A stretch of 64,000 bases of DNA from Bilabrum cf. latius. Taxonomy: Eukaryota. Both the position numbers and the translations under genes were made by a program. Below are positions 14,409 through 52,170 of the stretch, piece by piece. The number at the start of each line of letters is the position of its first letter. Positions within the stretch are counted from its first letter, which is position 1. The stretch is taken from assembly GCA_965178125.1 (NCBI GenBank), contig OZ237742.1:1302001-1366000 (forward strand), given 5' to 3'. The notes under the pieces are model-generated. The model did no database searches. It saw only the letters and a list, made by a program, of their open reading frames with translations, and was not told the origin of the DNA.

Positions 14409-14576
14409 CAATTATAGTTTCAGTCCAAGCATGCCTGTCGCTGGATCTCCTGATGCATCGGAGACAATCATCATCGAACCGATTTGCGGACCGTTGGATT
14501 CTTGGGCCGGCGTGATGATTCCGGTTCCGTTCTGAACAAGCCAGCATGCAACTTGGAAGCAGTTCTTTGCATTCTG

Positions 14577-24082: not shown

Positions 24083-26626
24083 TCACCGCTCCATCTTGTT
24101 CTTCAGTCTGTCATGCTGCAGCTCGAGCCTCTCCAGCTCGGACATGCCGTGCACGCCCGCATCACCCGCTCCGCCGCCCCTGCGAGTAGCACCTGCGGCT
24201 CTACTTCGCGCCCCACCCCCGCCGACACGCTTGGTCCCACGCATGGGTCTAGCCACAGCCCCGACGGACCTTCCCGCCCGAGCCAGCGCACTGATACCGC
24301 GGGGCTCGTGGCCTCCTCTCGCACGGCCGCCGTCCCGTCCCACCGGGCTGGGCGCTGCGGCCTGCCGCGCGTTCGGGTCCACGCCCATCTTCTGTTCCCT
24401 CACGCGGGCCGCAAACTCCAGGGCCCGCTGCCGCTTCGAGGGCACAGCCCGGGCCTAGGCCATTCTCGCAGCCTCCTCCTCCTGCGGGGAGGGCCTGTGG
24501 CTGTGGCTCGCCTCGATCGCACCTCTGGGCCTCGCACCCGCGCGCTCCAGCGGAGAGGGCGCCCCCCCACCCTGCCTGCCACCAGCCCGACCCAGAGCCG
24601 CCTTGTTCCGCTGCCGGGCTCGCTCAGCGAATACTGCCGCCCGCTGCGCCTTGGCACGCGCCGCCCTCACCTGCTCGCTGTCCAGGTCGGGGCCCAGCCC
24701 GCCCGGCTCGCGCCTGGCCTGCAGTCCCTTGCGCGAGAAAGCCCCCGCGGGCTGCCTGACCGCCGCCTCCCTCTCCTCCTAGTACCTGTCTCTGTACTCG
24801 CCCAGCGTCTTGGGCCTGTACCCCACGGGCCGGGCCCTCCTTCCGAATGCCAGCGGATCCTCCAGCTCGCGCTGCCTCTGCTTGGCCTCCCTTGCCCGGC
24901 GCACCACTTCTTCTCTGGAGAGTGCGGCGGAAGTACCGGGTCCGGGCTTAGAGCCGGAGCTGCCATTTCCCCCCGGCCTTGTACCTGCTGGCTTCCTGCT
25001 GGCTGCACCACGGTCCACTGCCCGCTGCTTCCCGATCCTCTTCGGCCCCGCAGTGCTGAACCCCCGGCCAGCCGGGCCTCTCTACGGGCTGGTCTGCACC
25101 GGGGACTCGCGCCCCACTCCCGGCGGCGAACCGAGCATCTGGCTTGATTCCCCTGCATGGCGGTCCTGTGCTCCTTGCTGCTCTGCTCCCCTGGCCTCCC
25201 GATCCGCAGTGGGTACCCTGTGCAGCACTGGCTGCATGGGGATCGAGCCAGAGTCATGGCCTGAGGTGCTGGGTTGATCCTCGAGCTCCCGGTCCTGCTG
25301 CTCTATGCCCTGATCCGAGTCGAACGAATCGTCCATTCCAAGCGGTGCATTCCCCGCCCTAGCGTCGTACTGGACGGCAGCTAATGCCTCTGCACCTTCA
25401 CCGTGAACCAAAAGGTCATCGCCTGCATCTGCACCGGCTTGACCCCAATGCACCTCCGCGGTGGCGCTCGCACTTGCATGCACTGCACCTTGGTCGCCAC
25501 CGCCCTCAGGGATGTAGTACACCGCAGGACCCCCTGCTTGGGCAGCATTCTTCTTCGCCCCGGTGCCTGCATGCCAGCTCTAGACCGCCGGCAAGCCACC
25601 CGGCCCCTCGCTCCCACGGCCACCAGCCCGCACTGCGTTCAGGTGCTCGTCCCGGAGGCGTGGGCTTTGCTTGCCCGCTGGCGAGGCCGGGGGCAGGCCC
25701 CTGGCAGCGGGGGGGACCCCGCCCCCAGCTGGGGGTGTCCTGGGGGGCATCATGGGGGGCACGTCGAAGGCAGACTGCGTGATTGCCGTGTGCAGGCTGC
25801 CTCGGCTCACCGCCTCCATGGCCCAGCCGCCTCGCGCCCCTGCTCCTGCCTAGCCGCTGGATCGTGACCCATCGGCATCTGGGCGCCAGTTCCCATGCTC
25901 ACGAGATGCACCAGCCCCCGCCATTCCCCGGCCCGCTACAGACCCCCTGCTGCCCGCCCCCAGCATGGTGCGGGGACTGGCCTGGGAGGCGCTCTCGAAG
26001 TGCGCGCCCGTGATGCTGCTCGCGCGAGAGGGGGGCGAGCCGTCCTTGTACTGCATCGAAGGGGACGGGCTCGGCTGGCCCCTGGGTGGAAGAGCGGTTG
26101 ACGCGACTGAGGTGCGCCCTCCAGGCGGCTGCTGCTGTGGGAGATCGACATGATGCTCGTCTCGCTCAGCAGGCTGCTGCTGCTGCTGCTGCTACGAACG
26201 GGCTGCCAGTGGTGGCGATGCCTTTGGCAACTCGGGAGGAACCAAGCTTTCTGCCACTGCAGGTTCGCTGCCAATGGCAAGGCCAAGCATATCTCTTGCT
26301 CTATTGCTAGCCTTGATGCCTGATTGGCTGTCGCCGTGCTGTTTGCTAGTCTCGAATCCAGCGCCATTCAGATCTACTTGGTCAACACTAATCTTCTTTA
26401 CAGATGGGGACGCATACGGCTACAGGGGCTACATAGTTCGCATGGAACTACCATGCATCGCAGAACCCTTCGCTGGGCTCGTCTTGGACGGAGATAGCGG
26501 CGACGTGCTGCGTCTCGACTGCTACTTCTTCTGCCTAGCAGCACGCCGTGCCCGCAGGGCCTGAACGCCAGATGCCTAGCTCTACTTCTGTTCCAATGAT
26601 CTTGCATGCCTGCTGCTATACGACAT
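24083..26626 (-). CDS. JHY: JHY-like ciliary/centriolar protein (~847 aa, 11 in-frame TAG)
   Basis: C-terminal motifs YRPKTLGEYR, PGGLGPDLDSE...AVFAERARQRN, SKRQRALEFAARV and ELERLELQHDRLK match my recollection of the JHY domain. Six ORF fragments share one frame. Includes a TAG CAG CAG CAG CAG CAG CAG run at 26174-26194. Confidence 0.72.
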
Positions 26627-27223
26627 CACTAAAAACAAGCGACAATCGGGCTGACTATGCTGCCATTTTGACTTCCATCCGTTGGCAGTCGTCATACCGC
26701 AAGCACAGCAGTGACCGATTCTGAGGGACGCCCGCCCGTCACCGTGCAATGGGGCACAATACTGGAGGGAGTTAACGGCCAGGGCTTGTCCGCCAGCACG
26801 AACGAGTCTACCCCTGAGCCTCCATCCCCGCCGTCACTGCCAGTGGCATCATGATCGCTCTCCCACCACCGCCGCACCAGCTCCCTCACCGTTGTTCCCC
26901 CGATGCCCAGCGACTCCCACTGCGACACCCCGTCCTGGCAGTGCATCCAGCAGCTGTGCAGGAACTGCCCGCCCTGGCCCGAAGGACCGCCTGCCAGGAC
27001 CGTCGAGGTGCCCAGCGCCTGCAGGAATTGGTGCCGCCAGTCCCCGTTAAGTTGGTTGCGCTGCAGTGGGGTGCAGTCCGAGTTGTTCCTCTCGCAGGCG
27101 GCCCATCCCGGGGGCGTGCTGGGCAGCCACGTCGGTGCGAAGATGTTCCCCAGCTGGTACGTGTCGTACCCGCTCTGCAGAGGCAGGGTGGGCGCCTTCG
27201 TGAAGGGCGCCGTGTACTGCGGG
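26224..27223. repeat. ~1 kb diverged direct repeat, copy 1 (JHY 5' end + intergenic + PAE 3' half)
   Basis: Aligns by eye to 54105-55168 with scattered substitutions and indels. Confidence 0.92.
26692..27223 (-). pseudogene. 3' fragment of the pectin acetylesterase gene
   Basis: PQYTAPFTKAP...FLHSCWMHCQ...DKPWP is near-identical to 54691-55168, but lacks the catalytic GCSAGG region and has a deletion at the native stop. Confidence 0.8.
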
Positions 27224-27890
27224 TCCCCAATTTTCCTGCCAGTGGGGCCCAAATACCCGTCATCCTCCGGTGTTCAGAACCATCTGCCAGCAGGTGGGCG
27301 ATCGCCCCGGATGGTAGTTATTCCTCGTCGTCGGCCATATAAGGCGGACGACCTTGGCGCTGTCCGCCGCAGATGGCCGACGACGAGGACCCGGGGCGAG
27401 CGGGGCGGGGGCGATCTTGCAGAGAGCGTCCGCCGCAGATGGGGGCGGGCCACTTGGCGCCGGTCCGCTGCGGGTGGGAGCGCATACCAAGCCGACTGCG
27501 TATGAGTTAGGTGACTGTGCGCTGGGACTGAGTCTGGTACAGCTCGAACGTGGAATGGCCCCGATGCCGGTCAGTGGAGGATCGGAGCCGACCGGAGATT
27601 GAGTGAATGACAGACGAAACAAACGCTATGAAATCAACGCCATGCAATAACAACATACACATTGAGGCCGACGCCTTAGGCCAGGAGTAACCCATTCGTG
27701 TCTCGGCACTGCAGCGCTATCCACCTGACCCGCCCCAAGGTATGCAAAACACCCCTTCAAGCTGGCGGACGTTCCAGAGAGGGCGATCACAGAACGAAAT
27801 CGGTGCGGCTCCGTCCCAGTCGAATGGCCTCGGGTCGAGTCCGCCGCCGTCCATCGGGGAAACGGAGCCTTGAGCCATCTGCCGCGGACG

Positions 27891-30800
27891 TCAGCTCCCA
27901 TCCCCGGCAGTCGGTAGCAAATGTCCGTCCCCACCGGATGGTGTCGGATGGGCTCGCCGCGGACCGGAGCTGACAGCGGGCCTTGCCGGTCCAAAGTGAC
28001 CGAAACTGTTTGACGCAGTTGCCCCCGTCCTTTCTTGCTTGCTCTGCAGTCTACCTGCCGTGAGTGCTGCTGGTCGCGATTCCGACCCGTCACCAGGCTC
28101 CGCAATGTTCGGGATTACCGATGGGCGTGCAGTGCTACTGGACTCAAGCAGCTGCTGCCTCTTGTCCTCCCGCCACACTTGAACACCGGTGTACAGCAAC
28201 ACACCGCCAGCCACGAAGTTCACAGCACACAGTCCCAGAGTCACAATCACGCTCGTGCCCTGCAGACGGGACGACAAAGTGCCCTGACCCCCAGTCCCCA
28301 CTAGAGTGTCCCCATCCATCCCAACCAACGAGCCGTTCCCTCCACCCTGCTCCTGCAGCATTCCACCACCACTGCCGCCATCTCGTTCACCGGTCAGACC
28401 CGCCGACTCCAGCTCGGCCGCCTCAGACAGCGCCATGTCCTCGCTTCGCAGGTACATGACTGAGAGCACCTGGGTCATGGTGAGCGCCAGCAGACACACC
28501 AGCTCTGCACGGTTCAGCAGCAGCTGCTCGTAGGGGTAGTACAGAGCGTGCAGGACGAGCGCACCTACCGAAATGCTGATGGACAGCAGCACGGCATTGT
28601 ATGGCTCCGTGACCAGTGACCCAATGGCCACGATGGCAACCTTTTTTACCATCACAAGTGACTCCCAGGCCTGCATGCTCCGACCAATGTTGTACCCACT
28701 ATAGAGGAACCCATACAGCTCAAAGAAAGCATCGTTGTGCCGCAGAATGTGCGAATCTGTGCGATATAGCAAAGTGCCGACTCCAATAGGCAATCCCAGG
28801 CCAAGGATCAGCAGCACTGCACCTGCCCCTACCTGCAGCCCGACGTGACTCCCTTCGTGGCACTCTATGCGCAGATCGCGCTTGAGGTACACCCTGCCTC
28901 CGATTGCATCTGGCAGGCAGTCAAAGACCGACAAGGCCATGGAAGACACCACTGTATAGGACAGGCACGCCACCAGCACGGCTGTCCCCATGAAGCGAAG
29001 ACCCAACAAGTACTCCAGCAGAGCATCGAGAGGTCCAACTGCACCGCCGCTCATGGTAGTTGGCTGCGATGTCGGCAAAGGTAGGGGATCTCCAACAGCT
29101 TGTAGAGGGTTTTCCATGTTGAAGCCTATTCCAGTATCTCCCGCACGTAAAGTTTGAGGTTGACTCGAAGCTAGAGATTGGCGTATGGAGGTCTGCGTCA
29201 CTGGTACCTTGGCAGTTTGCGCGGCTTCACCACAAAATACGTCGGGTCTGCTAACAACCCGAGGCTATTCAGTAGGCTAGAATGCCGACTTGCTCGAGAG
29301 TGTGGACAGTTTGCGACTAGCACCTCGAGATCTACCACCCGAAAGACCTCTGTCTCGACGCTTGCACCGCTGCGATATGCATGCCGTTGCTGATGAACAG
29401 ATAGACAAGCCTGTGTGTCGCACCTTCACCCCTGCGAATGCCTCTACAAGGAATGCTAGGAGGTTCATCACAATGGCTACCGCACTCACTACCACCGGAA
29501 ATAGAATTGCTGTGTAGAACACCGTGTAGAAGCTCGGACGTACCGCACACTGCAAAGGGCTGCCTGCAAACAGGCTTGATCCTGCTGTCTCGGTCCATCC
29601 CATCAGCATCCGGAACGTCTCTGTCCCCTTGGCTTTGTATAGCCCCAAAGTGCCTAGCGCTGTCACGTAGTTCATGCCGATCCTAAACACCACTCCAATG
29701 CGCTTTGATCGACTCTGTGCCTTAAGCACTGCAACGTAGAAGATACCAACTGCTAGTGCTAGCACACCTAAGCCCACCAAGGCCCAATTACGTGCCAAAG
29801 AACCGCACTCAACGCATTCTCCAGGTGTTGAGCTGGCCCCGAAGCCCTTCTCTTCGTCGCATACAGCACAGAGGGGACCTGAGTGTCCCTCTGCACAGGC
29901 CAGCACCCGTTGGTCTCTGTCAATGACACAAGCCTCTGCGTGAAGGCACTCGTGCACCTCGGACTCGGCCGTGAGCAGCCTTTCTCCGGTACTGGCATTG
30001 ATCATAGGGGATGACCCGTCATCGGGCACCAAGTACCACCCCTTCCTAGGCAGCTGCAGGATTCCACCTGCGCACGACGCGAATCCCAGCTCATTTGGAC
30101 AGGACTTGCACGCCTAGCCGTCGCCCCCGAGAGCGTACGACAGAGGTGGACAGTCCCCGCACCGGACCCCTCCCAACCCCGTAGGCTCGCTGCCTGGTCC
30201 ACATGGCTATACCTTGATGCGACTACGGATCGGTGTTCCCGGCATGCGCACCGACTCGCCACGGAAGCACACCACCTCAATATCGTATGTCATCCCAGCC
30301 CTGCCCAGAGCAGCGATAGCTGGCCACTCCACCAGCCCCCCCCGTGCCACTGCAGAAGGATTGAACAGGAGCACCGAAGGATCGTCCGATAGCAGCCTTG
30401 CCTCGCAGCTCACGTGCACCTCGTCCACGGCCCGCACAGGTGGGTCCACTTCAGCGTGCCCGTCCCAAACCGTGACTATCTCAAGCGCCATTTCGAACGG
30501 TTCCTGGGACTACACCGATACTGGAGGGTTTACAGCCCACCGAGCCACATCACCACGCATCCTGACCTCAGCTCGATGTAGCACTGACTCGCCGCCTTGC
30601 TCCCGGAAGCACTCCATTTCAAGGGCAAGGGCCTGCCCATAGTCCGCCTGCAGCACCAAGCGATCCAGTGGGACCACACCTCCGAGCGATATGATTGCTG
30701 CCCGCTCCAGTGAATCAAGGGCCGCAACCTCTGGAAGCAGCTTGCGTGCTGGCAGACCCGCTGATCCCGTGAGTGTTGCGGCGTGCTAGCTGTCGGGGTC

Positions 30801-33800
30801 CATGCCCAGCTGCTCCATCCGAGCCTAGCGCTGGTCCAGCTGGAGATCCAGTACATCAAGATCCACGGATGGCCTGTAGCCCCCAGCAGGAGGCACCAGC
30901 AAGGCTGCAGTCACCTGCGTGGGATCCTAGCTCCCATCGTGCTCTAGCGGTGGCCTCACCCACGGCCGAGATGCATCGTCAAGGAGACTTGCAGCCTCGT
31001 CCAAGCGCACGATACACTGCGCAGGAACGGGCCTACCTTGTCCGTCTGTATCCTGCAAACCCACAGCCCCGGCAGGTCTGATAGGCAGCGGCTGCTGCGG
31101 CGTGCTGGGCTTGGCCACGGTGCCTGGCGATTGCAAAAAACTCAGTTGAAGCTCAGGCAGTTTCACGTGTAGCTGCGGACTGACGACGATGCGTTCTGAC
31201 AGCTGACACTACACTACCAGCTGTGCCCTTGATCCTCTATCTGCCAGTAGCTGCATGCACAGCGTAGCAATGGAAGCACCGCTTCCACTTGCTTGCACTT
31301 GTGGGCGAGCAAATGTGAAAGCTTCTCCGCCTTTCAGCCTCGCTGCCTCGTTGCCTCCACTCGAACCGGCCACAGATAAGCTGCAGCTAGTTGCAGCAGC
31401 CTCCGTTGGCGACAGCGGCACGAATACCAGACCACCAAATCCATCCACATACGACTTCGTAATGCTCACCGCGACCGGGTGTGTATCGCCATACAGCACC
31501 TTGAGCGGAGAGCTCGCTTGATCATTTCCAGAGACATCTGAGGCCAGCAAGTCCACGGCCTGTTCCACAGCAAGTGGATCAGTTGCCGGGCACTGTACGG
31601 TGGACGAGCTATAAACATCGTTCACGTGCGTCCATTCAAGAGACACGGTGGGCACCTGTATCTGCAGCAAGCTGCCTGTCACGGCACGCGAGTTGCCCTG
31701 TGACACCCTCGGGCCGTCTCGCGATCGCACTGCCCCTCCAGTCAGCCACTGGCATGTGGCATCCACAGTGCTCACGCTGTCGAAGTCAGATGCCACGCCC
31801 AGCGAGTGAGCCTGCGCCACCGCCGGCAGAGCACTCGACGTCGTGCACGCGGCGCCCGAGCGCTGATCCCGCTGCCATGGCTCGGGCACCGGCACGGTGT
31901 ACATGCGGGTCCAGCCCACAAGGTCGCCATTCAAGATAGTCCCGGGATCCGACAGCGAAGATGTCGACACGCGCAAGGCATCGCATCGGAGCCTTGGCGA
32001 GGACTCGCACGTGCTGGCATCGGGCCCGCCCAGCGCCTGCCATCCACCCACAGTCGCCATGGATCGATGCAGCCGCAGCAGCGCGGTCGCGGTCTGGTTG
32101 GCCTCTTGCAGCTGGCCAGCTCGCGCTGATTGCGTCCTGCATCTCAGACTCAGGCTCGCATCCTGGCCGGCCTCAAAGGCGCCAGACTACGGCGCATCCC
32201 ACAGCCCCGGCCACGCATCCGTCAGATTGCACGGCAGCACCATGCTCACCACCACCCGAGGAGCTGGCAGTGCCGGCTGCAGCTCGGCATCGGTCACGCG
32301 CACATCCGGAGCTGACCCGCTCAGGATGTAGTTGCGGCTCACGCTGGGCATGGCGGCAGTCGGCGCCACCGTGTCCACGGACGCCTATTGACCTTCTTGC
32401 TGACCCGCTGCCGTCAGCAGATCATGCGCCGCGGCTCGCCACGCGTCCAGCTCCCCGCCCTCGCCCGTCCACCAGCGCACCGCCATGGGCGGCACCAGCG
32501 CCAGCAGGTCCGATGCCTCACTGGCGTGGGCAGAGTGCATGAAGGTCTCGCCCGTGATCCACGTGGCCTCCACAGACAGGTACGCCGCTCCGCCACGGTG
32601 CATGGCGGTGTCCAGCTGGTCCGCGCGCAGTGTGGCCAGCCCGACACGCTGAAACCTCGCCGCCCATTGCAATGCGCTGCTGCCCAGCCCCCGCACCAGC
32701 GGCCGGCTGTCAGAAGCGTTGGCAAGGACGATGCTGGAGGCCGGCAGCGGGGCGCGGTCGGTCTGGGACTCACGGCCTGCCACGAGGTGGGGCATGATCA
32801 GGCGGCCCGGCCACTGGTGGTCAGATCGTGTCGCTGCTCCGGGGGTCTTGCGCAGATGCAGCTGCACCTTGGCGGCTTGCTCGGAGTCCAGGCGGGAGCT
32901 GCCGCTGCGCTGCATTGTCCCGCGCACCAGCAGTCTGTCGAACGGAGGCACCGCACTCACCGTGGCCACAGGCGCTGGCACCAGCCCCAGCACCTGCCCC
33001 TCGGGCTGCACCTGACCGACGACCTCTCGAGGAGTGGAAGAGGTGTCCTGGTCGAGGCTGTGCGACCAAGGAGCCACAACCACCACAGGCGCCATGGATG
33101 CGTTGCTGGATCTGTGCGCCGCGCCTTGCGCCACTGTGTCGGCGATCTGCGTGGCCATGCTGTCTCGATCCAGGGCCACCGACAGCGGCAGCACGTCTGC
33201 TCGCAGCAGCGGACGCACGGCTGACGGGGCCCGCATCATGCTGTACGTGCCTCCCCATGCGCATCGAGCTCCGAGCACCACCGATGATGACGACGATACG
33301 CCGGCTATGCCCACATGCGGGAACTGGACACGCGCCACCCCACTGCTGGACGACAGGCCCGTGGTGGCGTTGTCCACGGCCCGGAGCTGTGCCTGGGCCT
33401 ACTGCAGCTGGGAGGAGCCCAGGCCCTCCTGATCTGCCCAGGCACCATCGTCGACTTCCGCTTGCAGCGTGGCGGTGGCGGCGTGCAGGCCTGCTCCGGC
33501 CGGCAGCAGACTGCTTGACGGCGCCTCCGCATCGCCTAGATCCTCCCACGCAGGCACGCCGTCCCAGGAGATGTTGCCCACCAGACGGGGAGACTCCAGG
33601 TTGCCCCCTGCAGCCGCACGACCCGCTGCGCCATCCCGCCACGGGGCCCAGGCTTCCAGTGTCAGCGTGCAGCTGATGCTGGTGGCATACTGCAGCAGGT
33701 CCCGAGATCCCACGCCGCTCACCTCCAGCACCACCTCGGGTGCTGGCGTCAGTGGCTGCACGTCGCTGCCGAGACTGGGCAGCGCCGAGGGCCAGTCGGG

Positions 33801-36800
33801 GACGGACTGATCGTCCATGAGTGCGGGGCGAACGAATGGCAGGACGGCAGCAGGAGCAGCATGCAGGGCGCCGATGCCAGCCAGCGAGTCCAGCAAAGGG
33901 GCCAGGGGATGCGGGGGTATCCACGCGGTGATCTGCGATCCTGTGCCGAGGCTCTGCGGCGACCGCCATGGATACAGCCACTGGCTTGGGCTTCTACGAT
34001 GGGGAGGCATGGATTGTGCGACTGCGCGATCGGCTTGGACAGCGCCTGCCGACCCATGCATGGACCATGCGCGCACGGCCCATGCCACAACGGGCACCTG
34101 GATCTGCAGCAAGCTGCCTGTCATGGCACGCGAGTTGACCCGAGACACCCTTGGGCCGTCTCGCGATCGCACTGCCCCTCCAGTCAGCCACTAGCATGTG
34201 GCATCCACAGTGCTCACGCTGTCGAAGTCAGATGCCACGCCCAGCGAGTGGGCCTGCGCCACCGCCGGCAGAGCACTCGACGTCGCGCACGCGGCGCCCG
34301 AGCGCTGATCCCGCTGCCATGGCTCGGGCACCGGCACGGTGTACATGCGGGTCCAGCCCACAAGGTCGCCATTCAAGATGGTCCCCGGATCCGACAGCGA
34401 AGATGTCGACACGCGCAAGGCATCGCATCGGAGCCTCGGCGAGGACTCGCACGTGCTGGCATCGGGCCCGCCCAGCGCTTGCCATCCACCCACAGTCGCC
34501 ATGGATCGATGCAGCCGCAGCAGCGAGGTCGCGGTCTGGTTGGCCTCTTGCAGCTGGCCAGCTCGCGCTGATTGCGTCCTGCATCTCAGACTCAGGCTCG
34601 CATCCTGGCCGGCCTCAAAGGCGCCAGACTACGGCGCATCCCACAGCCCCGGCCATGCATCCGTCAGATTGCACGGCAGCACCATGCTCACCACCACCCG
34701 AGGAGCTGGCAGTGCCGGCTGCAGCTCGGCATCGGTCACACGCACATCCGGGGCTGACCCGCTCAGGATGTAGTTGCGGCTCACGCTGGGCATGGCGGCA
34801 GTCGGCGCGACCGTGTCCACGGACGCCTATTGACCGTCTTGCTGACCCGCTGCCGTCAGCAGATCATGCGCCGCGGCTCGCCACGCGTCCAGCTCCCCGC
34901 CCTCGCCCGTCCACCAGCGCACCGCCATGGGCGGCACCAGCGCCAGCAGGTCCGATGCCTCACTGGCGTGAGCAGAGTGCATGAAGGTCTCGCCCGTGAT
35001 CCACGTGGCCTCCACAGACAGGTACGCCGCTCCGCCACGGTGCATGGCGGTGTCCAGCTGGTCCGCGCGCAGTGTGGCCAGCCCGACACGCTGAAACCTC
35101 GCCGCCCATTGCGATGTGCTGCTGCCCAGCCCCCGCACCAGTGGCCGGCTATCTGAAGCGTTGGCAAGGACGATGCTGGAGGCCGGCAGCGGGGCGCGAT
35201 CGGTCTGCGACTCACGGCCTGCCACGAGGTGGGGCATTATCAGGCGGCCCGGCCACTGGTGGTCAGATCGTGTCGCTGCTCCGGGGGTCTTGCGCAGATG
35301 CAGCTGCACCTTGGCGGCTTGCTCGGAGTCCAGGCGGGAGCTGCCGCTGCGCTGCATGGCCCCGCGCACCAGCAGTCTGTCGAACGGAGGCACCGCACTC
35401 ACCGTGGCCACAGGCGCTGGCACCAGCCCCAGCACCTGTCCCTCGGGCTGCACCTGGCCAAAGACCTCTCGAGGAGTGGAAGAGGTGTCCTGGTCCAGAC
35501 TGTGCGACCAAGGAGCCACGACCACCACGGGTGCCATGGATGCGTTGCTGGATCTGTGCGCCGCGCCTTGCGCCACTGTGTCGGCGATCTGCGTGGCCAT
35601 GCTGTCTCGATCCAGGGCCACCGACAGCGGCAGCACGTCTGCTCGCAGCAGCGGACGCACGGCTGACGGGGCCCGCATCATGCTGTACGTGCCTCCCCAT
35701 GCGCATCGAGCTCCGAGCACCACCGATGATGACGACGATACGCCGGCTATGCCCACATGCGGGAACCGGACACGCGCCACCCCACTGCTGGACGACAGGC
35801 CCGTGGTGGCGTTGTCCACGGCCCGGAGCTGTGCCTGGGCCTACTGCAGCTGGGAGGAGCCCAGGCCCTCCTGATCTACCCAGGCGCCATCGTCGACTTC
35901 CGCTTGCAGCGTGGCGGTGGCGGCGTGCAGGCCTGCTCCGGCCGGCAGCAGACTGCTTGACGGCGCCTCCGCATCGCCTAGATCCTCCCACGCAGGCACG
36001 CCGTCCCACGAGATGTTGCCCACCAGACGGGGAGACTCCAGGTTGCCGCCTGCAGCCGCACGACCCGCTGCGCCATCCCGCCACGGGGCCCAGGCTTCCA
36101 GTGTCAGCGTGCAGCTGATGCTAGTGGCATACTGCAGCAGGTCCCGCGATCTCACGCCACTCACCTCCAGCACCACCTCGGGCGCTGGCGTCAGTGGCTG
36201 CACGTCGCTGCCGAGGCTGGGCAGCGCCGAGGGCCAGTCGGGGATGGATTGGTCGTCCATGAGTGCGGGGCGAACGAATGGCAGGACGGCAGCAGGAGCA
36301 GCATGCAGGGCGCCGATGCCAGCCAGCGAGTCCAGCATGGGGGCCAGGGGATGCGGGGGTATCCACGCGGTGATCTGCGATCCTGTGCCGAGGCTCTGCG
36401 GCGACCGCCACGGATACAGCCACTGGCTTGGGCTTCTACGATGGGGAGGCATGGAGTGCGCGACTGCGCGATCGGCTTGGACCGCGCCTGCCGACCCATG
36501 CATGGACCAAGCGCGCACGGCCCATGCCACCACGGGAGTCCGTACCTCAGCCGCCTCCATATGAGGAAATGCTTGTATGGGATTTGGCCACTCGCATTGC
36601 ATCCCCAGTTGAGCTCGCCAGCCTAATGGCATGGATAAGCCAATCATTGGCATCCTACTGCCGATAGCTTTGTTGGGCTCCATTGCAGGCAAGGTGATGG
36701 ACCCGGCTGTATCTGTCTGGAAGCACGTCCACCCTTCCAAGGCCACAGTTCCTGGCGCAGGTTGGCCAGCTAGCAGATCTGCATCGCTCAACTGTGAATC

Positions 36801-39800
36801 CGGACCGGCGCCAGTAACCACTACTACGCAACTAACGTTGGATCGGTTCACATGCGTGCTGAATTCCATCGAAGGCCCAGCTTCGTCTGAGACCAGTTGC
36901 ACTTGCAAATGTGGCGACATAGACGAACTTCCTGCTCTGTTGATCTAGTGTTGAGACAAGCAAAGGCCGTTCCTATCCAAGGGTGCTAGTTGCTGCTTAC
37001 CCTGTGCAGCGACAGGCAATACTACTGTTGCAGTATGGTTGCCGGGATGCGGATGACCAACGTGCACTCGAGCCCGAATAGACGCAACACGAGCTAGAAC
37101 CACCACAGGCTCCGAGGAGATGCCAAGCAAGCTGGTTGTGCATACCATAGACAGCCGGAGTAAGTCGCCCATTAGCGCTTGCACGCCGTAGGGCAATACT
37201 TGCAGCTGTCCTGTCACGCTCGATGGGGCATACGAACGGCTTGAATCTACTGGCAACACGACTGACCTGGAAGACTCATCATGGCCGTATGTGGCCTGCA
37301 CGCTGCATGCAACCCCGTATCGCTGGCTGTCTTCCCCAGATACAGGCTACTGAAACGCATCTAGAAGCCCCGCCACAAGCAAGGGGTCACTCGTCTCGAT
37401 GCCTGGCAAGAGTGGAGTGGATGCCCGCAGGACACCCTCCGTAGTATCCGCTGTCTCGAGCACGTACTCCACATCTAAACTCCGCAAACCAGATCCAAAC
37501 GGCTTCATCTATCTCCAGATGCTGCCCTACTGACCCATCTCGGTGGTATTGATCCAGCCATGGCCAGCCTCGGTGGCATTGAGGCCAATCCACTCCGCCC
37601 CAAGCCACGCATCAAGCACCGGGGCGCCCAGAAGCGGTGTCCCGAGGGCCTGAGCCCCCATGTCCTACCCAAGAATACAACCCTAGCAAGCCTCAAGCGC
37701 AACCTGCCCGCCAAGACAAGTCCTAGACTCCCATGGTGATATTGACTTGGTATCATTGCCTGGCTGCGCCGCCCAGGCCGCCGATCCACGACACACATTG
37801 GCAGAACCTACGGCTGTCGGTGTCGCCGGAGTTCCAGAGGGGTCTGGATAGAACAACACGCTACCAGCATTGGATACAGCTCCCGTAACCGCAATCCGAC
37901 TTGTTCTCACCTCTTGCACAGTGCTTGCATCCACAGCGAGAGCCCCGCCTCCTTGTGCACTAGTGGATTCTATGAGCACGTCGTGGAGGACTGCGGGCAC
38001 GTAGTCGCTGCTTGATGTGAGCATTCTAGACACAGATACCCCCCCACCTTGCCCTGACATCGTATGTGTCGAGGGTGCTAGATCTGTCTCCTCTTGAATG
38101 GTGCAGTCCTTGATGGCGACGTGCTTCAGCTCCAGCTGCGCCATGCTATCAGCCAGCAGACACCCGCCCCTCGCCCACGGTAGACCCACTACCGCCCCCT
38201 CCGCAAGTGCACACAGACCTCGAGGCAAGCACTGGGAGGTATTGAAGGAGCGTGCGCCTGCCATTGCAACTAGTCCACCTCCTGGCACAATGTGCTGCAG
38301 ATTCAGTGGGGCCAATACCTCGGACTGCATCAGGGCACCAGTGCTGGGTTGCACAATCTCAAAGACTCCATGCTCTGCTTTTGTGGTATTGTACGCTTCC
38401 CCTAGTACTATTCCATCCTGGATAGTTACAGGGGCCACCATGGTAGCAGTGGACTGTTTGCCCGTGTGCATCCATGCGCCGCCCAAGGCACTAGCTCTGC
38501 AGCTCCTCAACAGCGCGTGAGGTCCGATCTGAATCGAGGTGCGGACAGTCGCCAGACAGCCACCGCCGTACTGCCCATCGCCCGGAACAGACACCCTACG
38601 GCTCGCATCAGGCGACATGGCCACACAGTATCGCAACTGAGCCCCGTCGCGAAGCACAGACTACCGACTCTCATCATCTTGCAGCGACAGACACCCGCCT
38701 GTACCATCCCAAGCCACACCTCCCTCCAACAACGAGCCAGCAATCCTCACAGGTGATTGCTTGGCCAGCATGATACCCCCGGATCCACCCGTCATGCCGT
38801 GCATTAGTTGCGAGCCAGGCTAAACCAGGACTTGGACCCCCTGCACAGCAACAAGCCCGCCACCAGACACAAAAGAAGAAAGACTGCCAGGCATAGTCGC
38901 TGCACTGCCCCTCTGAATCACAGAGTTGCCACCAATTATTAGCTTGGCCACCGCAGTAAGGGGCTACAGCTCTTCTATAGGTAGCACGTGCACAGGGCCT
39001 TCAGGTCGAATGGTATCCTGCCAGTGTGCCAACTGCCAGGACTCCTGGTGAGCATCTCTCGACCAAGGGCCTGCAGCTTTCGCCAACAAGCAAGCGAGAC
39101 TAGAGAATGCTTCGCGCCATTCACGAGTTTGTAATTCACCACCAAACGTGGTATTGTCAGCTGGTATAGTGCTGTTTGAACTTTCTTGTGAGCAGTACGA
39201 GTCGATAAGATCTGGAGTACCACCGCACTACTTGCTCATCCTGAACGCCATCGATAGCCCTGTAGCGGCCAGCGATCCCGCTTCGCTGCTTTCCGTAGAT
39301 ATCATATAGTCTATCCACCACGACCCGTTGAAGTATTCCTGACATGCGGCGGTGTTATTGAGGAGCGCCGGCCTCCCCGCACTTGCACGACTGTCTCTGA
39401 GCAAGGCGCCGCCCAGCGACGAAGGAACATGCTACTCCAGCTCAGCCTGTAAAACAGGTGCCTGTGACAAGTTGCACCGATTTTGCCACATCCTATCCAC
39501 AGACGAGTTGGCAACTCTATCCACAAAACACCGCGACGATCGGCGTCTGGGCAAGGAAGTCTACTGTGCAACAGACAAAGCGAGCCTCAGCCTCGTCGCA
39601 TGCTCCTGCACAGGGTCGAGCTACGAGCCCGCTGATGCTGAAGCCGCGTTCCAGTCCACCAGCAGACCAGACTATGCCAGTGTGTCGGCAATTGCAGCGG
39701 ACGGCACCTTACCCATGAAAATGGCACCACCTCGCACTGGCAGGGGCGGTCGCAGCTGCTGGTCGCTTGCGAATAGTCCCACTCCGGTGTCGCTGATTAT

Positions 39801-42800
39801 CGAGGGTTGTCCCTGTGACTGTCCCGGCCGCGTCAAGTCCGAAATACTAACAAGTGCATCTCCATGAGCTTGCATCGCAATGGCGCCTCCCATGCGACCA
39901 CCCAGTACCTTTGCGATTTTTGACGTGCCTGTCCACGGACTTGTGGCCAGTGCTGCAACACTGGACCCGCACACTGGCTGTGTGTCAGTCCAGCTGCGTC
40001 TGCCCATGTAATGCTAGCCAACCTAATGGTTAAATACATCGGTGCTTGAAACCGCTTCAAGAGATGTTGCATTCCATGGAACGCAAGGAAGCTGGGACTC
40101 CGAAGAGGCTTGCTCGCCCTGTGGCTGGCATAGCTGTGAGTCTTGCATTTGGGAAATGTCGTTTGAATCTCCAGGAATGCAGGGTGGATTACCGACGAAT
40201 GAGTGCTGGATGGTGCTTCCCATCATCTCAAGAGTAGCTCTGATGAGTCGAGTCAGTGGGTCCGGTAAGCTAGATACAAGGGCAACCCCCCCATTCCTAC
40301 GGATAGGGCCTCGCTGGGTGCTGCCAAGCGGCAGGCGAGCTACTTCTAGCAACCCGCTTGTCGCCTCCAATGTGAGGATCACCTGCTTATGTTTGCTACT
40401 CAATCCTGTCAGGGAATTGATCGAGTCGACTATGGAAGTCACGTTGGCAGCATTCAGCCTACTCACGAGGAGCTTGCTCCTGTCGGCATTGCTGCCAGAA
40501 CTGCTTGAGGTGGGAGGCAGCTGCAGAAGTGCTGCAGCACCACCGGATATCCTTCCAATCGTCTGTGAAATTACAGTATCCTGCAGTCGGATAGATACGC
40601 GTCCATTGTGCAAGCCGACGGCTGCTAAAGCACCACCGATAGTCCCAGCGTAGCCCCTGTCTATGTTGGAAGACGACACTGAGATCAAAGCACTCGGTGA
40701 TACTGTTTGCTCATACTCTCGTGGCCACACGGAGTGCAGGGACTGCAGCAGTGCAATGCAACCGCCAGAACCGCCCATGGCACCACAAGAGGAAACTCTA
40801 GAAAACTCCACTGACACCACAGCACTCGCTGTTGATGCAGCCTACGACTGCACAGAGACGAGTCCTCCAGCACCAAACGCACTCACTGCCCCCCTCATGT
40901 TGCTCTATGATATTCGCACGGATATTCCAGCCGCAGTAGCTGCACGGTCGCCATTGCCCATGTATGAAGTGACGGCCACAGCACCCCCATCCCAAGCGCT
41001 GGCTGGACCGGACGTCATGAGCTGGGACATGCCCAGCCCCAGCCCACGATAGGCCAGTCGAGCAGAAAGCAAGCCACCTGAGGCGTAAAGACGGCTGGGT
41101 CGAGCCTGTACTTCTGCCTGGAACCTATGCAGTGATCGATTCAACCAAACCAGATGGTCCCAATTCATCGAGGAAAACGAGCGGCTGATGCACTGGAAGT
41201 GCGTTGCGCGCTAATCCTTCAATAGCTGTTGCAAAGCAGATGGTTCTTGCATGGTCGCACCGCCTACTAGCGCATTGGACGTGTCTAGCATGCTTGTCAC
41301 CTGCATCAAGGCCGCATGATCGCACTGTCGGAGTGCAAGCATGCTGCTAGCATCCATATTGAGTGCAGCAGATTGGTTGATCCTCAGAAGTGCCTAGGCC
41401 CCCACTGATGCCAACAAGCAGGCATCTCCAAGCAAACAGCTATCGATCGAGTTGTTATACGAATATCCATGCTAGGCGCGCTAGTCCAATGTCTGGAGCA
41501 CCTGCAGCGACTCTGAAACCGTCAACTGAGACTCGTTTGACGCAGCCAGTAAGGGATCGCTGTCCGAAGTAAGTATTGCGTCTGTAATGAGCACTCCAAT
41601 GGATTCTTTCCGAGAACTCTCACTAGATGGCTTCCACATCACGCGGCCTCCTTGCCCCAAATCCTACTTACTAGCTGCCACCAGCTTTGGCCACCAGTCA
41701 GAACTGGCATCAACTGGTATCATACTACCATCGACCAGGCCGTCTCGACCCGCGGCGTGCTTCCAGGCTGGCAAATCGTGCACCGCAAGTAGCCGAGGTG
41801 GCAGCAGTGCCCTACCTAGAGATGCGCGTGCATCGGCATAACTCCCATTGCTTCCAATCTGCTGCATGACAGCATGCAGTCCAGATTCCTTCACTTTCCA
41901 TGAGTTGGAGATACGTACATCTGATACGCTGGACATACTCACCTAGTCCACGTCATAGGCTCTAAGCAAGCTACCTTCTTCATCTCCGCATGGTTCCTTC
42001 GCATGCCCTACCACAACTTCCCCTGCTTTGATTACAGCCTGCTTCCACGAGCTCAAGGCACCGCACCACGCTGGTGTTTGAGAACGAATCGACAGCACAC
42101 GGCTCATGGTCACCTGTGCTGCTCCTGTCACCGCCACTGCAGCTCCGATCGAGGCCAGGTGCACTGACTGGTTCGCTGGCTGCCATCCCACGCCCTGCTG
42201 CCGCTAGATGCCCGTGCTATCGACCAACAGCAGGCGACTAATGGCAACAAGTGGAGCCAAGGAACCTTGGCCCTAGAGTGGGGGGTTGTGCAGCCCGATG
42301 AAGCTTCCAGTCAGCTGCATGGTTTGCAGGGAATCTATCATGACTACTCCTGTGGCGTTGCTGCTCGTATTGCCCACCAAGTCCACGGCAAGTGAGTCCG
42401 GTGGTGGCACGACATCCAGGAGGGTGTTTGCCAGCCACTTATCACACATGGAGCCATGGATTCCACGGCAAGCGTCTCTAGCCGTCTGCCCAACCATGTG
42501 TCCAAGCCTACGATCGGCGGTTCCAGAGGCTCCCATGGGCAATCCGGTCCTGGCACCTCGCACGACGACGTCTTCCACTGTCACTTCTGCCACGCTCCTG
42601 AGAGCCAACACCTGCATGGGCTGCAACAGTCTCGATGCATCCAGCACAAACGAGGAGTCTAGCCGCACCCTGGAGGCCCCATCAACTGCCGCTACTGCAG
42701 GGGCGGGCCTTCTCCCCATGGCCCCGAGCAGCATGGACCTGGCCTTGAGACCCAAGGGTGTATGCAGCGCGCTCGTATTGTATCCCAATAGCCTGACTGA

Positions 42801-45800
42801 GTCGCCACTAGAAGCATTCTAGCTGTATATCACCCAAGGCCACTCTCTCGATGGGCCTGAGGGTGCTGATACCACACAGGGGGATAGAACCTAGATTCCT
42901 TGCATCCACACATTAAAGCCATATATTGGAGGAACAACCAGTCCCGTTTCCGAGGAATCCACACACTGTTGCTCTCCATCGTGCTGTAGGTTGCACTGTG
43001 CGCTTACCAGCAGGATCGCAGCAGCTGGTTCGTAGCCTGCTGTCATCCTGGCTGCTGCGTGGGACAAGCCCTGTCTTGCTGAGACCTGCAGCAAGCGCAC
43101 GGATGGCTACTGTCTTGTGTCTTGACTGGCATACAATGCAATGGGAGCTAGTGGGGACACGAGAGGATTCCGACTGGAGGTGTACGTCTGTTGCACCTGG
43201 ACAAAGTTGACGCCTATCACGAATACGTCTACCCCAGGGCCCACTTCCAATTGCAGAGCAGCTTGACCGGTCCATGGCCACGCAGTAGAAGCAAACGACA
43301 AGCTCCCCAGCCTGGGTGACACGTCAGCAGAACTGCACAATTCCATCGCGCTACTCGAATCCCACTGTTGATTCTACGCGGATGCACTGCTAGGTGCGGC
43401 ACTCCTCTCCCAGCCTGCAGCAGTCTCGCGAGCCCACCCGAGTCGAGATGAGGATAACCCACTACTGGATGCGCGCGCTGCCCATGATTCCATCACAGTG
43501 TCGGCAAAATCGCCCAGACAGTTGTAGCATATCTTGGTCTAGTTCACGTGTTCCAGGAAGGCGGCCCATGCACCTAGCCCCATCACCTCCAGCCCTTGCA
43601 CAGGCAAGACGGCAGGTGAAGTCTGGTTGGAAGGAGAGCTTGCAAGAGCTGGGGTAATGCGCAGCTGCTAGTACCGATGATCACTCACCGTAGAGGAGAA
43701 CGAGGCAGGGTTAGCGACAACGACCACTCGAATCGGCGTATCCTCTGGTATGGAGCCCCCATTGAGGCCGTTCCGGATGTAAGAATCGGCAATGTGAGCC
43801 AAGGATTGGCAGTGCGGTAGATATTGCATCAGCTCCATGGGGTCTTCATACAGTGCCTCGACATCACCGACTGTCACATTGGCTGCCTCCGCCCCTCTCA
43901 GCTCCAGCATCCTATCGATCGCATTGAAGTCGCACTTGGCTGGATCTGTCTGGCTTCGGTCTAGTACGACAGTCCGTTGAATGTCTACAAGTGGCCCATC
44001 GCTTTGCCGTTGGGGCGCCTTGATGACCTTCTCTGGGGGAAGCACATTCTTACCGAAGCATCTCGCACGCACTTGGTTTGAAGGCTGTACCATCACGCAT
44101 GTGCCTCCCTTCGATGCTGCCACTGCCACTACATCTGCACTACTTGGCATCGAATTGGACCTACTCCAACAGCCCATACGTGCGTTGAGCTCCTGCAGAT
44201 GGGCTGTGTTCTCGTTTTGCTCGCCGAAGCACACTGGGCAGCCCGCCTGCGTCACCACGCACACGTGACTGTCGCTGCAGGACAGGAAGCGGGAGGGTAC
44301 CGCAGGCCCAGCTGGTCCGGGCTGCAGCATTGCTGGCACATTAGGAGTATCTGCTGGATCCATACTAGCGCACCGGATTGCACCCAGGCTGTCAATGGAA
44401 CACGCATAGCCGCTGGCTGCACACATACCAGATACCCTGGCCGCTCCAATTGTCACGCTGATAGACTGTGCAACAGCCGTGACGTTGGTATCAACAGAGT
44501 CTGTGCTGCTCCAGCATGCCACATGCGACCTGTTTGTGGCAGATGCAGCGCAGCAGATGGACGACCCGCACTCCACGCCCCAAGCTTGCATGGGCACATC
44601 CACTTGTCCAGGCTCCTCCGGCACATGATCGGCAAAACCTAGTGCCTCGGTGGACGTCCCTAGGCAGGTCAAGTTGTGGGTACCGACGCTTGGATCAAGC
44701 TTCGGCATAGATACAGCGTGGGAAGCATTCACGGCAACCGAAACCGCATGGGATCCTACGTCCACTGCGCACACAGTGCCTCCTGATGTGAGGGCAAGAG
44801 GGCGCATGGGTCCGATGGCTCCAGGCATGGCAGCTGACGGGGCCAGCATTGCAGGGTGAACGGCCAAGTGGTTCGTTGGAATGGCATTCGCTCCAATGTA
44901 GCAATCCGCGAGAAAGCCTGTGGAGGATTCCACGATGCAGACCGCCCCATCCTCGACTCGTACAAAGGCGGGATTCATGGCTGCTCCAGCGTTCAATGCA
45001 TATGAATCTGAGATTCCTGAAGCTGTCCGGCCTACTAGCAGGCGGAGTGAAGCATTGCGAAGACTAGGCTGCGAGTTGTCGTCAGGGCGGAACTGAACCA
45101 GAGCGATAGCCACGCTGGAGTCGGAGGCAGCAGAGACCCCTAGTTCTCTTGCCACTAGGTTTAGTACATGCGCAGAGCCCATTCTGTAGGTCTGGGAACT
45201 AGATAGGATATCGACAGGGAAATCGACAGAACCCGACGCACTATCCAACGTCCGAATTGATCCAAAGCAGTAGATGGCAAGGCTGTGCTTTCGCTGTGCA
45301 CAAGTGGTCGAATATCCAACTGCAACCTGCGATTACTAAGATAAAAAGTGCATACATCGGTTCAAATTATTTTGTGACCCCATCACTTGGCGTGAATACG
45401 CGACAAGGTATCTTCACGCGTGTCTCACCTGTACAAAGTCCCCAGACACCTCACGAGGGGCCTGGCCGGACCAATCCGATCCCCAGCATCGGATGCGCCC
45501 CGACCGCTCCAAACCGCACGAGTGCGACTACCCGGCGGCCACCTGCGTGACAGCATAGGATGCATTCATCGACGGGAATGATCGCAGTGATGTAGCATAA
45601 GAAACAAATACGCACAATCCACGGACACACCACTTGCGATCGTGCCATCCGTCCCGACCAACCACGATTCCCGCACTAGGGCCATGCAGAGCCGCGTGGG
45701 TCGGATTCTGTGCTCGCGCATATTCCCATGGCTGGCACATGGCTTGCACCCAGCTCGGATTGAGCAATGTGGTCATGTCCGGGGCCAGGCGCGTAGCGAT

Positions 45801-48395
45801 GGACGGCTCAGGCAATGGTGGTAGTCGCTGTTGTACGCGGATTGGGTACTGGTGCCTGCGTCTCACCTGTACGAAGTCCCCAGACACCTCACGAGGGGCC
45901 TGGCCGGGCACATTCGCTCCCCAGCATCGGATGCGCCCCGACCGCTCCACGCCGCACGAGTGATAGCTCCCAGCGGCCACCTGCGTGACAGCATAGGATG
46001 CATTCAGCGACGGGAATGATCGCAGTGATGTAGCATAAGAAACAAATACGCACAATCCACGGACACACCACTTGCGATCGTGCCATCCGTCCCGACCAAC
46101 TACGATTCCCGCACTAGGGCCATGCAGAGCCGCATGGGTCGGATTCTGTGCTCGTGCGTATTCCTATGGCTGGCACATGGCTTGCACCCAGCTCGGATTG
46201 AGCAATGTGGTCATGTCCGGGGGCCCGGCGCGTAGCGATGGACGGCTCAGGCAATGGTGGTAGCAATTGTTACGTCTCACCTGTACGAAGTCCCCAGACA
46301 CCTCACGAGGGGCCTGGCCGGAGTGATTGTATCCCCAGCATCGGATACGCCCCGACCGCTCCACGCCGCACGAGTGCGCGTACCCGGCGGCCACCTGCGT
46401 GACAGCATAGGATGCATTCATCGACGGGAATGATCGCAGTGATGTAGCATAAGAAACAAATACGCACAATCCACAGACACTGTTGTATGTACTCGGACAT
46501 CAGGGTTGAACCGACGGGGAGCAGAGGTGAGCCGGAAGACGAGGTGGGTGCAGGAGGACAGGAGGTGGAGAAGAACAGAGGGGGACACCGGCACAGGCTA
46601 CGATAGTGCGGTGCCATCGCGAGAACACAACGGGAGGATGGGTGCTCCAGGTGAAAAGGCACGAGGGAGACGCGAGTGCCAGCGGGCTGCATGGCCAGCA
46701 GCGCGCAGAGGGCCAATAGGCGGGTGGACAGATGGGACGCACGGCCGGTCGGCCAGGATCAGCGCGTGCAAGCTGAAAGGATGGGGCCAAGGTGGCAATG
46801 CATGGAGCAAAGCACACGGTCCCTTGGGCGGGAAACAGGAACAGGAAGCTATGTAGCGACGAGGCCAGTCGCGTGCATTGGGAAAGAAGCGTGTACATTC
46901 GTAGTGTCAGATGAATACCGCATTCAGGTGGGCTGGGGGAGAACCAGTCGTTCGGGGTGAAGCCCAGTGGATCTGCGCCATCCGTCCCGACCAACTACGA
47001 TTCCCGCACTAGGGCCATGCAGAGCCGCGTGGGTCGGATTCTGTGCTCGCGCATATTCCCATGGCTGGCACATGGCTTGCACCCAGCTCGGATTGAGCAA
47101 TGTGGTCATGTCCGGGGGCCGGCGCGTAGCGATGGACGGCTCAGGCAATGGTGGTAGTCGCTGTTGTACGCGGATTGGGTACTGGTGCCTGCGTCTCACC
47201 TGTACGAAGTCCCCAGACACCTCACGAGGGGCCTGGCCGGACCAATCCGATCCCCAGCATCGGATGCGCCCCGACCGCTCCAAACCGCACGAGTGCGACT
47301 ACCCGGCGGCCACCTGCGTGACAGCATAGGATGCATTCATCGACGGGAATGATCGCAGTGATGTAGCATAAGAAACAAATACGCACAATCCACGGACACA
47401 CCACTTGCGATCGTGCCATCCGTCCCGACCAACTACGATTCCCGCACTAGGTCCATGCAGAGCCGCGTGGGTCGGATTCTGTGCTCGCGCATATTCCCAT
47501 GGCTGGCACATGGCTTGCACCCAGCTCGGATTGAGCAATGTGGTCATGTCCGGGGGCACGGCGCGTAGCGATGGACGGCTCAGGCAATGGTGGTAGTCGC
47601 TGTTGTACGCGGATTGGGTGCTGGTGCCTGCGTCTCACCTGTACGAAGTCCCCAGACACATCACTATTCGCTCCCCAGCATCGGATGCTCCCCGACCGCT
47701 CCAAACCGCACGAGTGCGACTACCCGGCGGCCACCTGCGTGACAGCATAGGATGCATTCATCGACGGGAATGATCGCAGTGATGTAGCATAAGAAACAAA
47801 TACGCACAGTCCACGGACACACCACTTGCGATCGTGCCATCCGTCCCGACCAACCACGATTCCCGCACTAGGGCCATGCAGAGCCGCATGGGTCGGATTC
47901 TGTGCTCGTGCGTATTCCTATGGCTGGCACATGGCTTGCACCCAGCTCGGATTGAGCAATGTGGTCATGTCCGGGGGCCCGGCGCGTAGCGATGGACGGC
48001 TCAGGCAATGGTGGTAGTCGCTGTTGTACGCGGATTGGGTGCTGGTGCCTGCGTCTCACCTGTACAAAGTCCCCAGACACCTCACGAGGGGCCTGGCCCT
48101 AATAATTCGATCCCCAGCATCGGATGCTCCCCGACCGCTCCACGCCGCACGAGTGATAGCTCCCAGCGGCCAACTGCGATAGAGTTTGCCGTACGCCTGT
48201 TGGTGGCGAATAAATAGCCGCGGCATATCTGACGGTTTTGCGTGTAAACGTCGTCTCCCGGCAAAAGCAAAGGAGGCTTCGTGAGTACCACCCAATGTAA
48301 CTCACTGTTGCCTAGATCAACTTGCCATGGCTTGATCTAATTACTGAGAGCCAAGCAGCAAGCCAATAAAAGATGAAATGTAGTACTCTTAGCAT
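27891..48395 (-). CDS. giant (~6,000 aa) cell-surface/membrane protein: signal peptide, RCC1/BLIP-II repeats, GGA-motif beta-helix-like region, Cys-rich repeats, C-terminal multi-pass TM domain
   Basis: ATG at 48395 (MLRVLHFIFYWLAAWLSVIRSSHG), then six RCC1 exons and a 17.4 kb last exon (45326-27891). In that exon 23 ORF-track fragments share one frame, and every gap I translated contains only TAG. Motifs: GGCIAL, GGALAA, GGAIF, CGDCPPLSY...CKSCP, CAEGHSGPLCAVC, FDCL...YLKRDLRIEC, YGFLYSGY...WESLVMVKK, YYPYEQLLLNRAE. TGA at 27891. Confidence 0.82.
31650..36535. repeat. tandem in-frame duplication, 2 x 2442 bp (814 codons), inside the giant exon
   Basis: Constant 2442 offset (31651/34093, 32385/34827, 33399/35841, 34081/36523). 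Near-identical peptides appear in the ORF track. Confidence 0.96.
45429..48173 (-). repeat. tandem array of ~440-bp exon+intron cassettes, each exon one RCC1 repeat
   Basis: Exons at 45429-45542, 45867-45980, 46281-46394, 47200-47313, 47639-47734 and 48060-48173 (V/LAAGxxHSCGxERSGxIRCWGxxxxGQAPREVSGDFVQ). Each has CGCAG| acceptor and |GTGAGAC donor in phase 0. Introns are nearly identical to each other. Confidence 0.92.
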
Positions 48396-51842: not shown

Positions 51843-52170
51843 GCCCCCCGCCACACCAGCGCCCCCCGCCACACCAGCGCCCCCCGCCACACCAGCGCCC
51901 CCCGCCACACCAGCGCCCCCCGCCACACCAGCGCCCCCCGCCACACCAGCGCCCCCCGCCACACCAGCGCCCCCCGCCACACCAGCGCCCCCCGCCACAC
52001 CAGCGCCCCCCGCCACACCAGCGCCCCCCGCCACACCAGCGCCCCCCGCCACACCAGCGCCCCCCGCCACACCAGCGCCCCCCGCCACACCAGCGCCCCC
52101 CGCCACACCAGCGCCCCCCGCCACACCAGCGCCCCCCGCCACACCAGCGCCCCCCGCCACACCAGCGCCC
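51843..52170. repeat. 18-bp minisatellite GCCCCCCGCCACACCAGC, ~18 perfect copies (GAGVAG on minus strand)
   Basis: Directly visible. It lies within the coiled-coil-like minus-strand ORF 51615..52247, which appears frameshifted upstream. Confidence 0.95.

Follow-up and report, generated by a model that had tools for sequence, protein, structure and literature searches.

The DNA analysed here is a 64,000-nucleotide window of the Bilabrum cf. latius genome (assembly GCA_965178125.1, contig OZ237742.1, positions 1,302,001 to 1,366,000, forward strand); all coordinates below are positions within this window. The host is a GC-rich, gene-dense eukaryote with few introns, and the window is nuclear DNA. 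On its minus strand lies a giant open reading frame (ORF) that is open when TAG is read through. This ORF contains a tandem duplication, in which one codon is TAG in one copy (A) and CAG in the other (B).

The giant reading frame and its tandem duplication

The giant ORF and the features of its duplication are as follows.

27891 to 45248, minus strand: giant ORF, 5785 codons plus a TGA stop, open when TAG is read through
34092 to 36533, minus strand: copy A of the tandem duplication, codons 2906-3719, with 4 TAG codons
31650 to 34091, minus strand: copy B of the tandem duplication, codons 3720-4533, with 3 TAG codons
34191 to 34193, minus strand: TAG, codon 3686 of the giant ORF, in copy A; the site of the finding
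31749 to 31751, minus strand: CAG, codon 4500 of the giant ORF, the equivalent position in copy B
35841 to 35843, minus strand: TAG common to both copies (partner 33399-33401)
34827 to 34829, minus strand: TAG common to both copies (partner 32385-32387)
34629 to 34631, minus strand: TAG common to both copies (partner 32187-32189)

The frame of the giant ORF contains 48 TAG codons, no TAA, and a sole TGA, which is its terminator. In the remaining five frames of this 17.4 kb there are 43-69 TAG, 8-17 TAA and 52-128 TGA. TAA and TGA are excluded from the giant frame, while TAG is as common there as in the non-coding frames.

The first-pass annotation of this DNA had reported CAG and TAG at the same codon of 2442-bp tandem copies lying in one continuous frame, and the sequence confirms this. 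The plus strand reads ...ccaCTGgcatgtgg... at 31749-31751 (CTG), which gives CAG as the minus-strand codon, and ...ccaCTAgcatgtgg... at 34191-34193 (CTA), which gives TAG. The protein context, VDATC-x-WLTGG, is alike at the two sites. The annotation had also proposed aligning the two copies as a check; a shift of exactly 2442 nt aligns them with 61 mismatches and no indels (97.5% identity). Since 2442 nt equals 814 codons, the duplication preserves the reading frame.

The 61 nucleotide differences are distributed over codon positions 1, 2 and 3 as 10, 5 and 46. They alter 59 codons, 43 synonymously (with TAG/CAG counted as Gln) and 16 by replacement. Substitution rates calculated by the Nei-Gojobori method in the giant-ORF frame were 0.070 (dS) and 0.009 (dN), giving a dN/dS of 0.13, whereas the ratios in two other frames were 1.7 and 2.5. 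This contrast indicates that both copies have been translated through their TAGs: both have been under purifying selection since the duplication, so the TAG-bearing frame is translated in each. The TAG/CAG pair, as one of the 43 silent differences, behaves in the way that the annotation had proposed for a synonymous Gln substitution.

The annotation held, further, that this comparison needs no external homologue. That holds for translation, which the duplication alone demonstrates, but not for the identity of the residue, which comes mainly from outside evidence. Differences per site between the copies are 45/669 (0.067) at synonymous and 16/1773 (0.009) at replacement sites. Because this rate contrast gives only about 7:1 in favor of a silent change (TAG as Gln) over a replacement at the TAG/CAG site, the single-site support for Gln is weak. 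The single pair is suggestive of Gln but is not decisive on residue identity.

Sequencing runs gave an independent view of the locus. Seven of the nine listed runs, from three studies, contain half or more of the words sampled from 30500-37500, and contigs of four runs were aligned to 27800-45400. Outside the duplicate, long TAG-bearing contigs matched with zero differences (for example, 39801-41874 and 42723-44213 in runs X2 and X5). Among the differences listed there, 11 of 16 were synonymous in the giant-ORF frame, the first nine included, and four of the five replacements are clustered together in run X5, no more than ~60 nt from where a contig ends. Contigs within the duplicate were short and cross-laid, and 14 of the 24 differences listed equaled the letter of the other copy. 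One contig of run X7 spans 31474-31937 without a difference and supports the CAG copy; none of the differences listed falls at 31751 or 34193. At the copy junction (34091/34092), no loose contig end was listed in any of the four runs. Depth in run X2 was ~80-100 in the duplicate and ~50 in its flanks, as two real copies would give, but depth is not copy number and this was not used as evidence. RNA is on record for none of the nine listed runs; two were guessed to be RNA, and one of these was called probably DNA. A 70-nt stretch at 30171-30240 has six differences, every one of them silent in the giant ORF; five occur in four of four runs and one in three, and the window assembly carries either a variant haplotype or a small local error there.

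No Pfam family was found in the 4999 residues of the giant-ORF product that were searched, and its last 885 residues had no PDB sequence match at E up to 1. Residues 500-2800 had zero database relatives in a search against shorter proteins, and residues 4530-5785 had only two database matches. The C terminus has a stretch rich in cysteine and, beyond it, several hydrophobic segments; over 199 residues of this C-terminal part, one relative (P0273) shares 69% identity with the giant ORF.

Codon usage in the window and the residue probably read at TAG

To place the giant ORF in context, codons were counted in 14 long ORFs of the window (16,317 codons), 10 of which carry Pfam domains. These ORFs contain 103 TAG, 547 CAG, 184 CAA and 0 TAA codons. 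TGA is the terminator of 14/14 ORFs and TAA of 0/14, a small sample. Recognizing a stop-to-sense reassignment of UAG calls for in-frame TAG in intact, selected genes and for TAG not to act as terminator; both were found, with one doubtful case, the tail of the DUF2817 ORF. At this tail (14580-14603) the codons run ...G TAG K G V G TAG S TGA, with TAGs 7 and 2 codons before the TGA. Across the last 10 codons of the 14 ORFs, 2 TAGs were observed and ~1 is expected at 0.6% per codon.

TAA behaves differently from TAG. If TAA:TAG followed CAA:CAG (25%), about 26 TAA codons would be expected beside 103 TAG, and the binomial probability of the observed 0 is ~1e-13. Reading TAA through (code 6) added only short 5' extensions and merged no supported ORFs. 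TAA is apparently not reassigned and would be a stop in rare use or else a codon that is avoided; if it ended 10-20% of genes, the probability of finding none among 14 would be 4-23%.

The TAG share of Gln-type codons is heterogeneous among the 14 ORFs (chi-square P = 0.035). The genes for Ku70 (5819-8194), a WD40 protein (18646-19701) and a pectin acetylesterase (PAE; 54694-55935) together have 0 TAG among 58 Gln-type codons, compared with 12.6% overall, the trio having been chosen post hoc, after the counts were inspected. TAG may be avoided in conserved genes. In the ORF of a Rad51 paralogue, a 12-nt repeat, CAA TAG GAC AAN, occurs eight times at 4232-4342; it is read Q-Q-D-K/N and supplies 8 of the 10 TAGs of that ORF.

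The following TAG codons bear on residue identity.

26192 to 26194, minus strand: TAG and, immediately after it, six CAG codons, together a poly-Gln run within ORF 24086-26833
17309 to 17311, minus strand: TAG, residue 398 of an alpha/beta-hydrolase gene (17078-18502), with an invariant LG before it and an invariant G after it
9861 to 9863, plus strand: TAG, residue 397 of a secreted pectate-lyase-like gene (8673-10190); column Gln 12/15
9294 to 9296, plus strand: TAG, residue 208 of the same gene; column variable in distant homologues (N 4, H 4, Y 4 of 19)
9093 to 9095, plus strand: TAG, residue 141 of the same gene; Gln commonest, 6/17 (A 4, M 3)
8757 to 8759, plus strand: TAG, residue 29 of the same gene; variable column (G 6/12)
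30927 to 30929, minus strand: TAG, codon 4774 of the giant ORF; Tyr in the 90%-identical relative P0274
30825 to 30827, minus strand: TAG, codon 4808 of the giant ORF; the standard-code ORF of P0274 stops just ahead

Homologue columns were taken from 40 of 120 listed homologues of the hydrolase and from 23 of 150 listed matches of the pectate-lyase-like protein (2 near relatives and 21 distant ones). The column of hydrolase TAG 398 holds Gln in 20/40, Ser in 12/40 and other residues in 8/40. Hydrolase TAG 85 falls in a variable column (A 9, P 9, E 7, D 6, Q 1, others), and TAG 168 lies inside an insertion missing from all 40 aligned homologues. For the three alignable columns (pectate-lyase-like 397 and 141 and hydrolase 398), a crude product favors Gln over Ser, which ranks second, by more than 100-fold. 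Tyr is absent from these columns, and Ser occurs in 0/15, 12/40 and 1/17 at pectate-lyase-like 397, hydrolase 398 and pectate-lyase-like 141, respectively.

Four near relatives (P0122, P0272, P0130 and P0274), which are ORFs called with the standard code, cover further sites. P0122 and P0272 (96% identical) have Gln at pectate-lyase-like TAG 208 and TAG 397; their ORFs start two residues past TAG 141, and the ORF of P0130 (86% identical) stops just ahead of it. These breaks exactly at TAG 141, like that of P0274 at TAG 4808, fit the expectation for a relative that itself carries TAG at the site. At the four TAG sites that near relatives span, the residues are Gln, Gln, Ser and Tyr, and of the three transitions from TAG (CAG, TGG and TAA), the relatives show CAG-type changes only. 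TCG, TAC/TAT and CAG are each one substitution from TAG, and some replacements are expected at TAG sites because the relatives are 10-14% diverged in those stretches. Glutamine is most likely the residue specified by TAG and is much the best reading, judged mainly from the homologue columns, the 96%-identical relative and the TAG(CAG)x6 run.

A probable reassignment of UAG, its rivals and known code variants

We conclude that UAG is very probably a sense codon, most likely for Gln, as the result of a real nuclear stop-to-sense reassignment (probability roughly 0.85). Under this interpretation, the TAG/CAG pair in copies A and B would be a silent C/T transition that followed the duplication. 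A tRNA-Gln with its anticodon altered from CUG to CUA would decode UAG, and the release factor eRF1 would have ceased to terminate at this codon.

Several observations weigh against this conclusion. Gln is the commonest residue at only 3/7 TAG columns of the two genes with good homologues; of the other four sites, three fall in variable columns where Gln has no majority and one falls in an insertion, and the hydrolase 398 column is also Ser in 12/40. Two near relatives depart from Gln, P0130 with Ser at pectate-lyase-like TAG 29 and P0274 (90% identical to giant ORF residues 4729-4795) with Tyr at codon 4774, and paralogous RCC1 exon units carry TAC or AGC where three units have TAG. TAG may be a real stop at the end of the DUF2817 ORF. 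Read support for the TAG/CAG difference is partial, the contig that matches without a difference covering the CAG copy. No tRNA gene was found in the 64-kb window by ARAGORN and no Rfam match was obtained, nor was an eRF1 gene among the Pfam-scanned ORFs of the window. Finally, all of the evidence for TAG as Gln comes from DNA sequence and its comparison.

The Ser and Tyr residues raise the alternative that TAG is sense but specifies another residue, such as Tyr or Ser, in which case the TAG/CAG pair would be a replacement. Tyr at codon 4774, Ser at pectate-lyase-like residue 29, Ser in the hydrolase column and TAC in one of the RCC1 units would all fit, but codons a single step from TAG are where replacements in relatives of this divergence would be expected to lead. 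There is also a precedent, the green alga Scotinosphaera, in which UAG was reassigned to Ser with UAA kept as a stop (PMC8271138). The lack of Tyr and the Ser counts in the three alignable columns, Gln at two TAG sites of the closest relative and the TAG(CAG)x6 run all speak for Gln, and we regard a different residue as improbable. Much the same low probability attaches to an ambiguous or context-dependent code, in which UAG would mean Gln within genes and stop near some 3' ends, or would be decoded inefficiently. The two TAGs in the last 7 codons of the DUF2817 ORF ahead of its TGA and the uneven TAG share (0/58 in the post hoc trio of Ku70, WD40 and PAE) are what such a code might produce. 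However, TGA ends every one of the 14 ORFs, the TAGs near their ends number 2 against ~1 expected, and with 48 TAGs in one ORF a full-length product would be vanishingly rare unless decoding were efficient.

Two further alternatives would leave the standard translation apparatus in place. U-to-C RNA editing could restore CAG in the mRNA, but ~100 edited sites would be needed in 64 kb, and the TAG/CAG difference lies in an otherwise near-identical context. We know of no nuclear U-to-C editing on a scale of ~100 sites per 64 kb, and we consider this explanation very improbable. Least probable of all, to the point of being negligible, is a dead gene or assembly artefact in which TAG is an ordinary stop. 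The Logan contigs are indeed fragmented and cross-laid in the duplicate, where 14/24 of the listed differences match the other copy. Nevertheless, there is no TAA or internal TGA in 5785 codons, TAG is used in the same way in Pfam-supported genes, outside the duplicate there are exact matches in runs from three studies, and the junction at 34091/34092 is without a listed loose end in four runs. A dead gene or artefact is contradicted by the stop-free frame, the dN/dS of 0.13 between the copies and the independent contigs.

Returning to reassignment of UAG to Gln, we compared the window with known variant codes. The host is probably a green alga, a placement that is itself weak: in an Atlas look-up Ku70 was placed only as "Eukaryota," and the cluster nearest to PAE was commonest in Streptophyta. 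UAG alone is reassigned to Gln (NCBI table 15 type) in the fornicate Iotanema spirale, the ciliate Protocruzia tuzeti and two phyllopharyngean ciliate lineages (PMC5304391, PMC11687900). Like these, the window has TAG as Gln, TAA that is not sense (0 in 16,317 codons) and TGA as terminator. In contrast with I. spirale, in which UAA is the main terminator, TAA ends 0/14 ORFs of the window; the host, GC-rich and with plant-like genes (PAE and pectate-lyase-like), seems to resemble neither a ciliate nor an anaerobic flagellate.

UAR is reassigned to Gln (NCBI table 6) in ulvophycean green algae (Dasycladales, Cladophorales, Trentepohliales and Blastophysa; PMC2984419, PMC8271138) and also in ciliates, hexamitin diplomonads, Streblomastix and Amoeboaphelidium (PMC11687900). 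In the ulvophytes, TGA alone serves as a stop and TAG outnumbers TAA as a codon (PMC2984419, PMC8271138). The window resembles them in having TAG at Gln positions, TGA as the sole terminator seen and green-alga-like gene content, but it differs in having no in-frame TAA (0 versus 103 TAG, ~1e-13). A table 6 code, with UAA also read as Gln, did not fit the window, which completely lacks sense TAA. In Scotinosphaera, UAG alone became Ser and UAA was kept (PMC8271138, PMC11687900); the host is like it in being, on its weak placement, a green alga with UAG alone reassigned, and unlike it in that the three alignable columns and the closest relative point to Gln, not Ser, as the residue.

The code change is thus of a known kind, a UAG reassignment, most likely to Gln, in a probably green-algal genome. 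A literature search, with subscription journals outside its coverage, returned no report of a GC-rich, compact, green-alga-like genome with UAG-only Gln. Only tentatively, we propose a more specific picture: an apparently green-algal lineage, so far undescribed in this respect, in which UAG alone became Gln, UAA is neither sense nor a terminator that we saw, and UGA ends every gene. The change might then be recent or still costly, as TAG is absent from the window's most conserved genes.

These results have practical and evolutionary consequences. Annotation of the Bilabrum cf. latius genome with the standard code would split most long genes at TAG, and public ORF calls of near relatives are already broken exactly at TAG sites. 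Within-genome duplicates offer a fast, homologue-free test that a stop-bearing frame is translated, with the limit that one TAG/CAG site tells little about the inserted residue. Nuclear code changes are rare, and separate fates of UAG and UAA are rarer still (PMC5304391); such differing fates bear on the co-evolution of release-factor specificity and suppressor tRNAs. If true, a green-algal case with UAG alone would decouple UAG from UAA outside ciliates and fornicates, and a compact assembled nuclear genome would let the tRNA and eRF1 changes be read directly.

Gene content and other features of the window

Pfam searches of the window identified the Rad51 paralogue, Ku70 with a SAP domain, DUF2817, the alpha/beta hydrolase, the WD40 protein, two pectate-lyase-like proteins, RCC1 repeats, PAE and a tubulin-tyrosine-ligase (TTL) family protein. 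Genes use both strands with intergenic gaps of 100-350 bp, and many consist of one long ORF. A search of JGI metagenome contigs for related loci gave 31 pattern matches, none of them a relative.

The RCC1 repeats form a tandem array at 45422-48178 (minus strand) with units of ~420-440 bp, each consisting of one RCC1-repeat exon plus an intron. The exon borders in this array are CAG/G and AG/GTGAG, and therefore spliceosomal introns exist in this genome. Three units read TAG TCG where others read TAC GCG or AGC TAT, and a 490-bp insertion interrupts one unit.

The 3' part of PAE has a dispersed duplicate (26224-27223 versus 54105-55168, 90-96% identity), which adjoins the start of ORF 24086-26833; the frame is open in both copies. 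In a 448-bp part of it (26776-27223 versus 54721-55168), ~10/18 differences are replacements; this part contains no in-frame TAG and adds nothing on the code.

The best database matches of the alpha/beta-hydrolase gene are 37-38% identical, and those with names are bacterial (Chloroflexota and actinomycetes). Judged from these matches, the gene may have been acquired from bacteria.

In-frame minisatellites with 42-nt units occur in ORF 10296-14411 (at 10865-11079) and in the TTL gene (at 60113-60367), and another at 51838-52171 has 18-nt units (PATPAP). Low-complexity inserts are common among the proteins of the window.

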